A stretch of 64,000 nt of DNA from Escherichia coli (GTDB lineage Bacteria; Pseudomonadota; Gammaproteobacteria; Enterobacterales; Enterobacteriaceae): assembly GCF_030013595.1 (NCBI RefSeq), contig NZ_CP122769.1. The stretch is one strand, 5' to 3'. Positions 13,101 through 19,100 of the stretch are shown piece after piece; positions within the stretch are counted from its first letter, which is position 1, and every line of letters starts with the position of its first letter. A program made the position numbers.

Positions 13101-16100
13101 GGCACTAAAGATGATTTAAGCATCAAACAGACTAAATCGGATTCCGTCTTTTATATCGCTTTTAAAATAGAATGAATGAAATATAAATTTAGCGTTTATG
13201 ATTGAACGCTGTAGAGGTTGATTTATCCAGTGATATTCAGTTTGGGGCCTTAAAAAGGTTTTATTTTGGATTCGAATTACAAAGGGAGCACCGACATTTT
13301 TCTGGGGGCTCCCGCAGAGAAAAAGCGGTGAGGCTATGAAGACGAAGAGGAGGTATTCGACGAAATACTGTATGGCCACAGGAGAGCTTCAGCACCCATA
13401 TCCTGCCGTCTCGCTCGCCTGTAATGATTTCAACATGTACAACGTCATACCACGTAGTTGTATTTCTCACTTTGTTTATGCTTCCTGACACCGTGTGAAC
13501 GCAATCTTCGTCTGGATGCGTTCATAGATGGAAAACTGCCTTTCAATGGAACCGGCATTAGACAGTAATTCATGAAGCTCAGCAGAGTCTGTATCGGGAA
13601 CGATAGCTACAGAAACTCCATATCTCCGTCCAATTTTGATTAGGTGCGCAAGCTGTTCTTTTTCGGATTCTGTGAGCATTGCCAGATCTCTTCCGGACAC
13701 CTGCTCTATAAACGAACCAAGGTTTTTGGGAAAAAAGGGTTCGGCATCAGAGTTATGTGCTGGGCGCGTCTGCGGCTTATCGAAGCTATTGGGCATGAAT
13801 AGAACCTATACAGTTAGAGAACTGGAGAATGGATAAAGACTCTATGAAAATCAGTTGTGCTACACTCGAATGCTAATCAAGCTTTATGATGGCTTTAGTA
13901 GGGATGGCCGTCAACTTAAACCGATAAGAAGGGAGCCATTTATCGTTAAAGTAACTTTCCCGGATGATGCTCTTTTTACGAAATAAGTTTCTCACACTCC
14001 TGTATAAGAGTCGCCCTGGAACGAGATCGACTGGCTTTGCTTAATGAAGAGCGTAGTTGATGTTCATCAACCCCATCAGCGATAAACTGACCGATTTTTG
14101 TTTCAAGCCGCTGCATTGCCTCGTAAAGCTTGGCATCCGCATTATTTTTAAGAAACCTCAGTATATAATCAGCAATAATTTGGACGGGAGTGAACTTATA
14201 CATTATGTATCCTTAAGACGTTGTGTTAAATGATTCAAAAAAATTTATAACCAGACGTAAATTATTATACATAAGTAAGCACTTTAGCTAACAAGCTGGA
14301 GGAGTGAATTTCGGTTAGCAACTATATTTTAGAAGCTGATTGCTGAATAGACAAAGCCCGGCTTACCGGGCATTCATTTAATTAGATGCTAGAAATCTGA
14401 CCCGTCGTCTGACTTTTATTCCAGGCAGAGTTAGGAACTAATAATGATGGCCTGGTCAGTTTGAGGAAGCCGGTTTCCTCTGATAAATGCAGGGTGGTTT
14501 AAACGAGAAGAAGAAATGGTCATCGCCAGAAATGTCTCTTCACGCGAACGCAGAAATTCCCCCCATGAATAGGTTTCCCATACGTCGTGAGAAAGGTCGG
14601 ATTCCTTTATGTACCGGGATTGCATTGTTGGCTCAAAATCGACAGGGGCTAAACTGTCATAGGATGGATGAACACGGTACCCCAATCCCTCCTCCGTCTG
14701 ATGGTATGCATGTGCCAAAAGGACATCGTGGGAGACCAGGTCATAGTCGTTGTCCTGAACGAGCGTTTTTACGGTATGACTAATTTCCCCAAAGCCGTCT
14801 ATTTCCCAGAGCGTTATCATTGTGAACTCAGCTAAAGTTCGTGGGCTCTTTACCAGAAAGCCATTTAATGCTCGTCGCCCCTTCAGCATGCCAACGTGGT
14901 AGGTCTTGTTGGGATAGGGTTTCATTGCCACCAGCGAATCAGCTTTAAGCTCAAGTGACAATTCAGGGACAGACACGGACATGAGAGTACACTTGTTTTT
15001 CATATGGTGAAGAATACGTGGCACAAGATGCAGATACATCATTTTCTCCTTTTATGGATATAACTGGCAGATCCTCAGCAGCATCAAAATAGTTAATAGA
15101 CTTTTTTAATTGGTTAACCACTGTTGATTGACTTGTTTTATGTCTCTGAGAAATTATTCGTTTTGTTTCTGTTCGTTATACTGCTCAAACCAGAAGACGA
15201 CCGGTTTTACTACAATATGAAGCAAACCAAAACGTTCTGCGGTACGGAAATTCACGCTATATGCGCGAGCCCGTTCAACCTGTTTGGTAATTTCATTTCT
15301 CATTCCTTCAACACTAAAAGCTCCTTTAAAAAGGTTGCAGGGAGCGCATGATGGAAATAAGTTTTCTATTGCATGCAGTTCAGGGTGCATAACCTTACCC
15401 GTACTTCGGGCAACATGAGTTACGCCGCTGCCGACCGGGGCTCTCACCAGTTCAAAGTCGCGTCGAACAGGCTCAACATGATCGGCATGCCACCCTTTTT
15501 CAGGAAGCTTGCAACCACAATAGGCACAACGCCCCCCAAATTTCATTCGCAGCTCAGCTCGCTGTATTTTAGAGATCTTATTTTTAGGTTTTGAGAACCT
15601 ACCATCAGGTGATTCCGCTTTGGATAACTTTGCTGAGGGCTCAGGTAACTCAACTAAATTCCCGTTGATATTTATCACCTTGACCATATCATTTTCCGCC
15701 TTTACTAATCTCACGGGCACAGGAGCTGGCTTAAGTAACCGCTGAAGTTAACAGCCACTGACTGCCTCTACCCAGACCTTCTGTTTATACTCAATAGGCC
15801 ACCCCTCTTTATCTGCCCGGATGACGCAATCATTTACCGTGGTGCGTGACCGGATACGAACATCAAGCGGAAGCGAATCGTTATCCACACGAGCCTGTGC
15901 CTCATTTAAAATGCGTAAAAACATCTCTTTGGTCATTCAGATACCCCCTCAACTTTGCGAATTTTGATCAGATGAGGGCGATTCAGTTTACAAAGTTGTT
16001 CTGTCGCTTCATCAATCGAATTGAACCGATGAGCCTCTTCGATATTTAAAGTCCAGTATTTCGCTTTCCCTTCTCCCAGATCGGACTCAAAATAATTTCG

Positions 16101-19100
16101 CTTTACATCCATTTTTTTAGGCCTGCCATTTATCTTGACGACATTATGTCTGTCATCAAAAAGAAATTCGTCCCCCTCAAAAGTGATTAATACAAATGGC
16201 CCCTCAGGCTTGGAAGTCCGGGGACTTCCCATTTTCAAAGTCATACTTCAGCCTCTCGATAGAACTCATGAAACCTCAAATTAAAATGGACTCACACCAC
16301 ACTGATTCAGTATTCCTCCTGAACCCCATTAGGCTCTGTTGTGATTTCATATTTAATACCGCCAGGTGCTCCCACAGCGTCCGCGACCGACTCACACAGC
16401 AGCGAGAGATCGTTGAGGGTCATTGGGTGTTCAATGTCCAGCGTGAAGAGTTTCCCGGCTTGCTTGGCGGCTGTCTTGTCAGCATGTTCAGCATTAAAAA
16501 GGTATACGGTGTGTTTTTCCTGAGCGGGGGTATTTTGATTTTGCATTGATGATCCTTTTGTTTAGTTCCCCGATTCCGGGGGTGAGTGAATTAATTTAAA
16601 TTTATATTTGTCTGGTTTAATTAGAACGTTTCCAGGCTATGCGTAAACAGGTAATGCAAAGGCTGTATCAACAGGATTAAAGTTACTTTTCTGGATGCAG
16701 CAACGCTTGGACATGATGTCCACATTACATCACGATCAAAGCTAAGTTTTTTTTGTATAACCCCTTCATTTTCGTGTGTTTCGCGTTTCAGACGCTTATA
16801 CGACCTGCCTGACCATCCTCATCAGAAGGCGGTTTAACAGTCCTTTCGCTGTCGGGCGATTGCTATCGACATAGTAAAAACCTGTTTTGGTCGTACCGTG
16901 AGCACTGCTCAGCACCCTCAGTTCCCAGATAACGTCACGGATAACGCCGCCATTTTCTGGCTTAAGGCATTCAGATAAATGGCGCATGAAACGAGCTCTT
17001 ACGGCACGGTAATAGCGGAACTCCTCTGGCTGGTTAGTATTTTCTTTCACCCGGAGTCGCTGGTTACACAGAGTTAGAACTGCATCCATCATTCCCGCCT
17101 TCAGCTTCGCCTGGATCGCACCTTGTTGCTGTTCCCTCTCACCTTCGAGTAACGTTAAGATTCTTTCTCCGAGTGCCGTCTTGTTGTGTACGTGCAACTG
17201 TACACAGGCAGCTACGCATGCCCAGAATCTGAACTTTTTTATCTGTCCACGCAATTTCCGGGCTACAACCTGACGGTATGCAGTATCGCTGAGTATTTTA
17301 AAACGCCGACTGGCAACCAGCTCTGGAAGCGACACTCTTTCGCCTATCCCCAGGCGGGAAAAGGTTTGTCCCCGTTGTGCGAGACGATGATAGACAGCGC
17401 CCTTCCCTTTTGAAATTCGGACCGCGCCATAACGAAGAAGATACTGAGCAGCAGTCGTTGGAGTAAACTCACCGTCAGCGATGCTCTGGCGTAACCCGTC
17501 GTATTCATGCCAGATAATCCAGGACGCCGTATCTTCTTCAACAGTCAGCTCATCCTCTTCCTCGAATGCCACGACGACAGAACTGCTCTCTCCGGTCTTT
17601 AGGCTACGTGAAGCCCTGGGGTCAGCCTGCCCGTCAAAATAGGTCATCAGCGGCAACGTATCAGTCAGTCCATCATAAGCTGTACCGAACCGGCCTCCGG
17701 GCAGTTTCATCCAGAGTGGAGCTGGCATTGGTGTACGGGCCACAGGCAGCATGTCAGGCTCATCCTCAAGAAGGTCCAGATCGGCCTCTTCCCAGACTCT
17801 GCGATAGATCTCAATTGCCCGAAACGGGCGAGGGTTGAAACAGTGCAACGACCAGAGGAAATCAACGTGGATCACGTTTGCTTCATGTACAAGCCGAAAT
17901 TGTGGCTCAGCCATACGACGGTTATAAGCCGTATCGTCCACCTCGCCGGAAAGTAGCTTTCTGCGATGCTTTGCCGCACGTCTGGCTTCAACATAATCAA
18001 GGCTGCAACAGACATGAAAAAGACGTTCAGTCAGGGACGAAGAAAAGATATTGGGTTGAAGACGCACATACCCGCCTTCGAACACTTTACGACCGATATA
18101 ATCCCGCAGGCTCCAGTCGTACTGGATCTTAGAAAGAAATCGCTGAAGACGACTTAGGCCTGCCTGATAACCATATTTCTCAGGGTCAGTGCGAAGGAGC
18201 GTTTCCATTGAATGGTCAACCCCTACGGCTGTGCAAAGCGAGCACCCATATCTAGCCCCACAAGCTGAGGTTCGCGTGGGTTTCTCCGGCGACCAGATAC
18301 ACTCTCCGGTGGCGTCTTTATAAAGCGTTGCCAGGCTGAAGTTATCCGGCATAAAGCTTGGTAAAGGGAAGCGGGATTCGGAACCACAGGCCATTAGAAA
18401 AGACCAGATGTCCTGAGTGCGCCACTCCTTTACTGGATAGAGTTCACCACCGTGCTCAGTCAGGGTTACTTTCCTCGCCTGCCCTCCCATTTTGAGGATA
18501 TTTCCGGCCCTTCGGGCACTTTCATCATCCCTGGAGCCCAGCATCAGGCATACCCTGCTTCGTACGGATGCCGGGGCGTTTTTTAGATAACGAGCTTTGG
18601 CCTTGCGCAGGGGGGCGATTTTGTAGTCGGTTGAGCACTGACGGGTTGAAGAATTAGTCCAGGTCGGAAGTCCACGTCCAGTCAGAATGCGGCCTACCCA
18701 GCTCTGCGTAAGAGACGGTTGGGCGACAAGGACTGTGACCGGTAGCTGGTGTTCAGCAATGAACATTCTAAGCTGGTTGAGAACCTGTGAAGCCTGATAG
18801 TGCATCTCAGGGTTTTCGATCAGCGTATCGGACATCTGAATGAAATGATGTTCGCTGATATTTGTGCCGTTACGTACTGCCCTGATCAATGCCATCAGAA
18901 ATAGGTGAAGAAGAGAATGGGAGTCTTTACCGCCACTGTATCCCACGCACATCGTCCATCCGTCCGTAATAGCCTGATAAATAGCAGATGTGGCTGACGT
19001 GACCAGAGAAGAAAGACTCACAGTCTCCTTTTCATCGGTATAGTTCAGATCGGCATCGGTTGTCAGGGTCTCCCAAACATCAGCCCATTTATCATGTTTC

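Follow-up and report, generated by a model that had tools for sequence, protein, structure and literature searches.

Large conjugative plasmids of the incompatibility group HI2 (IncHI2) are major carriers of mcr-1 and other resistance genes, and the function of most of their backbone genes is not known. One of these genes encodes a small HNH endonuclease and lies in a tight cluster of small genes within a 64,000-nucleotide (nt) stretch of Escherichia coli DNA (contig NZ_CP122769.1, assembly GCF_030013595.1; hereafter the window). What is such a nuclease doing there? A preliminary description of the locus had offered three answers: a homing-type nuclease, a defence effector, or a colicin-like domain with an immunity partner among the small genes. 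The gene is an ordinary, already annotated member of a known family, and we lean towards a solitary, homing-like, selfish or accessory nuclease, from a family that wanders among phages and plasmids and is now fixed in the IncHI backbone. This reading is favoured because of the distribution of the family.

The IncHI2 backbone extends across the entire window, which was mapped onto the reference plasmid pSTM6-275 (NZ_CP019647.1; typed IncHI2A, MOBH, MPF_F). The segment 14400–19200 matched 1003 plasmid records, 582 of them at ≥99% identity, almost all being large conjugative plasmids of Escherichia, Salmonella and Enterobacter. The HNH gene is free-standing, as first described, and its small neighbours of unknown function are co-oriented with it on a conjugative plasmid. 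Literature searches on HNH genes in IncHI2 plasmids, and between trbC and traN (see below), returned nothing pertinent. The gene is the following:

15154–15687, minus strand: HNH nuclease gene (beta-beta-alpha-metal, zinc-finger type), 177 amino acids (aa)

The start codon is likely the ATG at 15687 (177 aa) and not the GTG at 15720 (188 aa), because RefSeq uses this ATG and homologues begin there. The protein carries the full CxxC...DH...N...CxxCN..K signature and has the beta-beta-alpha-metal fold of the HNH / His-Me finger superfamily. It matches PHROG 2118 ("HNH endonuclease") with E=2e-55, and the Pfam HNH family (PF01844) at 22.2 bits against a gathering threshold of 21.4; this margin is small because the motif is split by a 38-residue beta-hairpin insert, so that only its first half aligns. 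The protein also carries a C-terminal helical region, and the IncHI version adds about 36 N-terminal residues comprising a short beta-hairpin and a basic linker. A PDB search with the single HNH sequence gave nothing meaningful; it took a profile search to reach HNH structures. When 105 diverse relatives are aligned, C54, C57, G58, P112, C114, C117, K121 and F165 are invariant, and R43, G52, Y56, D69, H70, R76, N109, N118, R130, F167 and E168 are conserved in at least 90% of the sequences. The motif noticed at first sight is intact: substituted motif residues were looked for with this alignment and none was found in the window protein.

Judged by solved HNH domains, the general base would be H70 in the D69-H70 pair, D69 and N118 would be metal ligands, N109 would have a structural role, and the cysteine pairs C54/C57 and C114/C117 would hold a structural zinc. 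Such a protein would have limited sequence specificity in nicking or cutting duplex DNA, and would act alone, without a partner from neighbouring genes. Between IncHI1 and IncHI2 the two versions are 79% identical, with a nonsynonymous divergence (dN) of 0.16 and a saturated synonymous divergence (dS); the gene is under purifying selection.

The family to which this protein belongs is broad, with 1428 representatives at 50% clustering (E≤1e-3; 502 with E≤1e-10), mostly of 120–150 aa and matching query residues ~37–172. Relatives that share the N-terminal extension (61–81% identity) occur in the nin region of a lambdoid prophage, with a DnaB-type helicase gene on one side and NinB/RusA/Q on the other, and in three unrelated small-gene arrays of plasmids. 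Shorter phage relatives (56–64% identity) were found in four further settings: in P22-like phages they adjoin Ea22 within the early-left region; in Edwardsiella phage eiAU the gene lies in the replication module, flanked by those for the polymerase and the helicase; in phage Bas77 it precedes the gene for the large terminase subunit by about 750 bp; and in phage HC6 it closes an early-gene array. Homologues from independent contexts (phage loci and the three plasmid arrays) are 56–76% identical to the window protein. When plasmids were searched with a query spanning the cluster, 2577 records matched, 1579 of them at just 60–80% nucleotide identity; in the examples listed for this second group, the HNH core alone aligns. 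The HNH-matching plasmids include many from Klebsiella and E. coli and the Salmonella virulence plasmid type. Phage early regions and conjugative plasmids would exchange genes of this family as single-gene cassettes.

Some of these settings raise the question of another function. A structure-specific nuclease of the endonuclease VII or Rap/NinG type, resolving branched DNA in recombination or replication, is suggested by family members located in the nin region, beside Erf/Abc2 and in replication modules, by secondary PHROG matches to "endonuclease VII" families (E=4.5e-10 and 9e-8), by viral structural neighbours, some of which are labelled "recombination endonuclease VII", and by one cluster named NinG by its source. 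The window protein has neither the membership of the Endonuclease_7 family nor the fold that define T4 endonuclease VII, and we regard a resolvase role as improbable. Other members lie just upstream of terminase genes, as in Bas77, and the protein is structurally similar to the GVE2 and Gme HNH proteins, which could point to a terminase-associated packaging nuclease of the HK97 gp74 type. However, no terminase or packaging gene is annotated in ~214 of the 276 kb of pSTM6-275, including the whole surroundings of the HNH gene, and many relatives reside in phage early regions or in P22-like phages that package by the headful mechanism. We give this last possibility almost no credence.

Does the HNH protein have a partner in the cluster? 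The genes and signals that surround it are these:

16307–16546, minus strand: orf79, 79 aa, first gene of the unit
15933–16244, minus strand: orf103, 103 aa, conserved small family phrog_30913
15748–15936, minus strand: orf62, 62 aa, essentially IncHI2-only
14431–15042, minus strand: DUF6012 gene (Pfam DUF6012, E=1e-33)
14356–14371, minus strand: terminator-like hairpin GCCCGG-UAAG-CCGGGC then UUUGUCUAUU (U-rich), 59 nt past the DUF6012 stop

All cluster proteins were compared by tblastn with the independent loci, and open reading frames (ORFs) of at least 40 aa were compared all against all. The HNH gene proved to be the sole cluster gene in seven independent phage or plasmid contexts and at the trbC/traN site of F-like plasmids; nothing else of the window recurs in the independent loci compared, and outside the IncHI1/IncHI2 lineage no neighbour is co-inherited with it. 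Conversely, relatives of orf103 and DUF6012 occur without HNH, and orf62 is absent from IncHI1. The idea of an immunity or partner protein among the small ORFs found no support. To judge from these comparisons, each cluster gene is an independent module, and the gene order common to IncHI1 and IncHI2 is a matter of shared descent and not of functional coupling proven by independent co-occurrence.

These observations bear directly on the idea of a colicin-like toxin-immunity pair, or of a multi-gene defence effector partnered by a small neighbouring gene. The tight spacing, the 4-nt overlap inside the cluster, the orf103-HNH-DUF6012 order common to IncHI1 and IncHI2, and weak PADLOC and NCBIfam matches to PtuB are in its favour. 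We nevertheless hold it to be very doubtful, because no IncHI2 neighbour travels with HNH elsewhere. In addition, neither the HNH protein nor its neighbours match a Colicin-DNase or immunity family, the protein, of 177 aa only, has no translocation, receptor or other extra domains, and its F-like homologue carries no small partner gene alongside. A colicin-immunity pair was consequently rejected for want of family matches and of a conserved partner. A Septu or retron PtuB effector fared no better: the matches are partial and far below the cut-offs (NCBIfam PtuB, 17.1 bits versus 150; TIGR02646, 21.6 versus 52.15), those from PADLOC span only the CxxC..DH segment, and no PtuA ATPase, reverse transcriptase, SAVED or other sensor gene lies nearby. 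Since HNH belongs to a promiscuous phage and plasmid family of solitary nucleases, nothing calls for regarding the cluster as a novel toxin-immunity or defence system.

The behaviour of the family can be followed at one site in the tra operon of F-like plasmids:

L018 6982–7401, L026 781–784 and L027 781–1599: site of the trbC/traN cassette in F-like plasmids

An HNH homologue of 139 aa (60% identity), carried by a pSLT-type plasmid, lies 36 nt after trbC, and its stop codon overlaps the traN start. In pF374-1, trbC and traN overlap directly with no insert, and in pH1519-76 the same site holds an extra 123-aa ORF together with HNH. The site exists in three alleles, namely empty, HNH (139–140 aa), and ORF plus HNH, and most relatives are empty. 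Pairwise alignment reveals a clean 848-bp insert at the junction. A query made of the HNH-containing junction matched at least 5000 records; among the matches listed, 738 cover at least 80%. This polymorphism fits the pattern that would be expected of a free-standing homing-type gene, short of proof. F-like family members are thus patchily distributed single-gene cassettes between conserved genes; in IncHI2 the gene is fixed. The trbC/traN cassette provides a simple system for examining homing by a plasmid-borne HNH protein.

Of the three readings first proposed, the homing-type nuclease therefore comes out best, with patchy distribution and a present-or-absent insertion in F-like plasmids on its side; what it lacks is a specificity module. 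From the sequences we infer nuclease activity, solitary action and homing-like biology, and several points weigh against this reading or limit it. No NUMOD, IENR, AP2 or HTH domain was detected in the protein with Pfam. The flanks of HNH-plus and HNH-minus F-like alleles are just 86–88% identical, so that the insertion events were not recent. In ~1000 IncHI2 records the gene is fixed and strongly conserved, and it is syntenic with DUF6012 and orf103 in IncHI1; such fixation and synteny fit a plasmid-useful function as well as they fit selfishness. The five genes of the apparent unit (orf79, orf103, orf62, HNH, DUF6012) would be co-transcribed, to judge from spacing and a predicted terminator. 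Finally, our literature search found no biochemical data for any close relative.

The unit itself is compact. The coordinates, minus strand and tight spacing given initially for the three small ORFs and for the HNH ORF ending at 15154 were confirmed: a gap of 62 nt separates orf79 from orf103, orf103 and orf62 overlap by 4 nt (ATGA), and 60 nt lie between orf62 and the ATG of HNH. The cluster does not, however, close with HNH as had been thought, for the DUF6012 gene follows 111 nt downstream and the hairpin at 14356–14371, the likely end of the unit, comes after it. HNH would therefore be the fourth gene of five, between a plasmid-wide palindrome upstream (see below) and a hairpin terminator. 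The promoter was not located, because promoter-like sites are no more frequent than in shuffled sequence; a hairpin in the 5'-untranslated region was likewise not above chance. In the IncHI1 plasmid pB71, homologues stand in the same order (orf79, 70% aa identity; orf103, 69%; HNH, 79%; DUF6012, 60%), with an extra 232-aa gene and without orf62. Given the existence of these IncHI1 homologues, and the low dN against saturated dS of HNH, the ORFs are real genes and not chance ORFs.

The neighbours of HNH have histories of their own, and the profile searches that had been called for gave a divided result: orf103 was assigned to a family, orf79 and orf62 were not. orf103 matches phrog_30913 (E=3e-38), with 46 homologue clusters and 28 invariant positions. 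Two homologues without HNH nearby were located:

L022 6001–6294 and L024 6001–6297: orf103 homologues (66–71% identity)

One belongs to the early region of a Mu-like prophage, where GemA/Mor come next; the other, in a lambdoid phage, immediately follows an Ead/Ea22 gene. This last slot is the one held by HNH in P22-like phages. A tblastn search of phage genomes with orf103 gave no match, despite the PHROG match, and its AlphaFold2 model was poor (pLDDT 63), with no Foldseek match at E<1. For orf79, no family match was obtained; its homologues form a small family of unnamed proteins confined to large enterobacterial plasmids (IncHI-type where checked). A paralogue, 51% identical, lies ~5 kb off in the same array (11142–11330, minus strand), and both copies are also present in IncHI1. 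orf62 was found in 982 plasmid records, nearly all at ≥95% identity; it matched no family in the libraries scanned, and the homologue search returned only IncHI2 plasmids. DUF6012 adjoins HNH in IncHI1 too. The family is widespread on plasmids (2229 records, including Pseudomonas and Xanthomonas). Homologues without HNH were located on a Yersinia plasmid, on pKP29-tmexCD1 within a different array of small genes, and on pSS17, where a type IA topoisomerase gene directly follows.

How does the unit fit into the plasmid? The window comprises, in order, a long minus-strand array of small genes, the RepHI2 replicon and, at its end, the start of the Tra2 transfer region. In pSTM6-275 the genes of interest are annotated, in order of transcription, as PAPS-reductase (phosphoadenosine phosphosulfate reductase) family, three hypotheticals, "HNH endonuclease signature motif containing protein" and DUF6012 family. 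Tra1, with mobI, the MobH relaxase and the coupling protein, lies ~20–30 kb to the left of HNH, and so, presumably, does the origin of transfer (oriT); the cluster is ~30 kb away from the oriT/mobI region, on the relaxase side. The array is transcribed toward Tra1, and it also encodes an orphan N6/N4 methyltransferase, a DndC-like protein and DUF3085.

This setting gives rise to the main rival of the homing-like reading, a plasmid-benefiting role co-regulated with transfer, which we judge unlikely. The HNH protein would then be an establishment- or transfer-associated nuclease, switched on with the transfer regulon in the manner of phage early genes, and it would process DNA in the donor or the new host, either by nicking for recombination or repair or by attacking resident or competing DNA. 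The long co-oriented array with its orphan methyltransferase, DndC-like protein and DUF3085 is consistent with such a role, as are the phage early-region homologues of both orf103 and HNH, the embedding of the F-like homologue in a tra operon, and purifying selection on the gene. On the other hand, the array is only a candidate leading region, and the family is also found in places unconnected with establishment. The main text of a survey of anti-defence genes in plasmid leading regions (PMC11541004) does not feature HNH nucleases. Two further arguments for this role come from the DNA just upstream of the unit.

A palindrome had been reported upstream of the small ORFs at 16679–16689. It is present, as AAAGTTACTTT, and belongs to a family of sites that is the most unexpected result of our analysis:

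16678–16690, no strand: palindrome (T)AAAGTTACTTT(T), 133 nt upstream of the orf79 start
2492, 2618, 11741, 13948, 16679, 21728, 25940, 30108 and 31143: AAAGTNACTTT sites, 11 bp each
36860, 39084, 45869, 45934, 52760, 56544, 57329, 60381 and 62690: AAAGTNACTTT sites, 11 bp each (continued)

A lone palindrome of the 5+1+5 type would be trivial; significance rests on the 18 copies. These 18 exact matches to AAAGTNACTTT in the window compare with 0.14 expected and with no more than 1 in any of 100 shuffles. In its extended form the palindrome reads AAAAGTNACTTTT, and it is sharply defined, because one mismatch allowed in the 13-mer adds just two sites with a changed core. Within a 34.8-kb gene-array stretch of pSTM6-275, seven of eight sites are intergenic, although intergenic DNA makes up 28.5% of the stretch (P ~9e-4), and the palindromes lie 91–217 nt upstream of the next minus-strand start codon. 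Likewise, most palindromes of the window are intergenic and stand 90–250 nt upstream of gene blocks and tra operons. In pSTM6-275, copies precede trhF by 195 nt, the first gene of the block running from trhA to trhC by 253 nt, mobI by 197 nt, and the divergent two-gene block beside oriT by 77 nt.

The palindrome is a feature of the plasmid as a whole, with 47 copies in 214 kb of pSTM6-275 and none in the resistance-gene region (79.7–95 kb). It is also dense in R27 (8 in 45 kb), in the IncHI1 plasmid pB71 (3 in 12 kb), in pRpNDM-1 and in pKP29-tmexCD1, all IncHI-type MOBH/MPF_F plasmids, a set that includes one IncFIB/IncHI1B plasmid; no copy was present in the IncF and IncX-like loci examined, nor in those from pSS17, pYR7 and phages. 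Past the stop codon of the DndC-like gene, the site occurs after ~125 nt in pB71 and after 107 nt in the window, and the surrounding DNA is poorly conserved. In the pRpNDM-1 lineage, the HNH homologue has a palindrome 12 nt ahead of its start codon. Two sites of the window, 36860 and 60381, are inside coding sequence, one at codons 2–5 of htdO and the other 300 nt into the gene for an Ig-like protein; both have the same extension, AAAGTWACTTTGCCTGCT, which would encode KVTLPAL. A second, perfect palindrome of the 7+1+7 type, TGGACATcATGTCCA, occurs at 16708–16722, between the stop codon of the DndC-like gene and the AAAGTNACTTT site. About four 7+1+7 palindromes are expected by chance in 64 kb (64000 x 4^-7, an estimate), and TGGACATcATGTCCA is not significant alone.

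The position and distribution of the AAAGTNACTTT sites suggest that they may be operators, and each is a candidate site. We tentatively propose, as a possibility a little short of even, that the palindrome is the operator of a plasmid-wide IncHI regulon, bound by a plasmid regulator, plausibly TrhR/TrhY-HtdA. In R27, 139 of the 181 expressed genes, among them 106 of 170 non-tra genes, are derepressed via TrhR/TrhY-HtdA when htdA is mutated (Gibert et al. 2020, PMC7366339); the text of that paper, as searched, names no cis element for this circuit. In the supplement of the R27 transcriptome no annotation matches the HNH homologue, and RefSeq locus tags do not map to R-numbers. We found no paper mentioning the palindrome sequence in a plasmid context. 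The HtdA/TrhR/TrhY regulon, which governs the thermosensitive transfer of IncHI plasmids, is still missing its cis element, and for this the palindrome is a concrete candidate. For the HNH gene, the presence of the same palindrome ahead of the unit and of tra operons, and the membership of most R27 non-tra genes in this regulon, as reported in PMC7366339, are the two further arguments for an establishment-type nuclease. If the operator proposal is true, the transfer genes would be linked with most gene blocks of the backbone and with the HNH unit, and HNH would be a transfer-co-regulated nuclease and not a stray selfish gene.

Other features of the locus were recorded. Immediately upstream of the unit lies a solitary PAPS-reductase family gene:

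16796–19180, minus strand: DndC-like PAPS-reductase protein, 794 aa (PADLOC DndC, E=4e-38)

The encoded protein reaches 117.6 bits with NCBIfam DndC, for a cut-off of 290.4, and ~430 of its C-terminal residues are unassigned; it is 75% identical in IncHI1, with a dN/dS of ~0.06. No Dnd-related Pfam match was obtained among its gene neighbours, and no DndA, DndD or DndE is nearby. A modification-restriction pair of the DndC-like protein and HNH was rejected on the sub-threshold DndC score, the absence of DndA/D/E, and the fact that HNH travels without the DndC-like gene. IncHI plasmids also bear further, larger HNH-motif genes:

pSTM6-275 181845–183134, outside the window: 430-aa HNH-motif gene beside Tra1 (IncHI2)
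R27 record 149397–151485: 236-aa and 268-aa HNH-motif genes

The "HNH endonuclease" of one mcr-1 paper is probably this 430-aa gene on the Tra1 side, and not the gene studied here, because both adjoin DsbC. Elsewhere in the window, about ten copies of an 81-bp tandem repeat adjoin repHI2 (39742–40570); the array is ~80 bp, or about one unit, longer than in pSTM6-275. An Rfam scan of positions 13000–20000 gave nothing relevant.

How do the HNH gene and the palindrome compare with known systems? The KorB operator (OB) of the IncP plasmid RK2 is a 13-bp palindrome present in 12 copies around the plasmid. Like OB sites, the IncHI palindrome is short, near-invariant, scattered over the backbone at about one per 4–5 kb, and mostly near promoters; it differs in its sequence, AAAGTNACTTT, and as a candidate site known here from sequence alone. 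For the HNH protein, the type II-C Cas9 and IscB HNH domains are a domain-level match only (14–23% identity), and, unlike them, it has no RuvC domain, guide RNA or CRISPR context. Small nicking HNH proteins (Geobacter Gme HNH, 4h9d; phage GVE2 HNH, 5h0o; HK97 gp74-type terminase partners) are another point of reference. In contrast to these, the window protein adds the 38-residue motif-splitting beta-hairpin and a C-terminal helical bundle, and its locus is without terminase.

Free-standing homing endonucleases of phages, such as T4 mob/seg and the T5 F-Tfl HNH proteins, are intergenic single-gene cassettes with a patchy distribution. The F-like relatives resemble them in forming a patchy single-gene cassette at trbC/traN, whereas the window HNH has no recognisable DNA-binding specificity module and its gene is fixed in IncHI2. 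The nearest counterparts are the PHROG 2118 phage HNH proteins (Salmonella phage c341 gp24, the BIS08P22 HNH by Ea22, eiAU gp20), which are 56–64% identical over residues 30–177 and share the CxxC...DH...N...CxxCN..K motif, the C-terminal helical region and the organisation as a single gene without a fixed partner. Unlike them, the IncHI protein bears its ~36 extra N-terminal residues and is carried by a conjugative plasmid, as a fixed part of the backbone.

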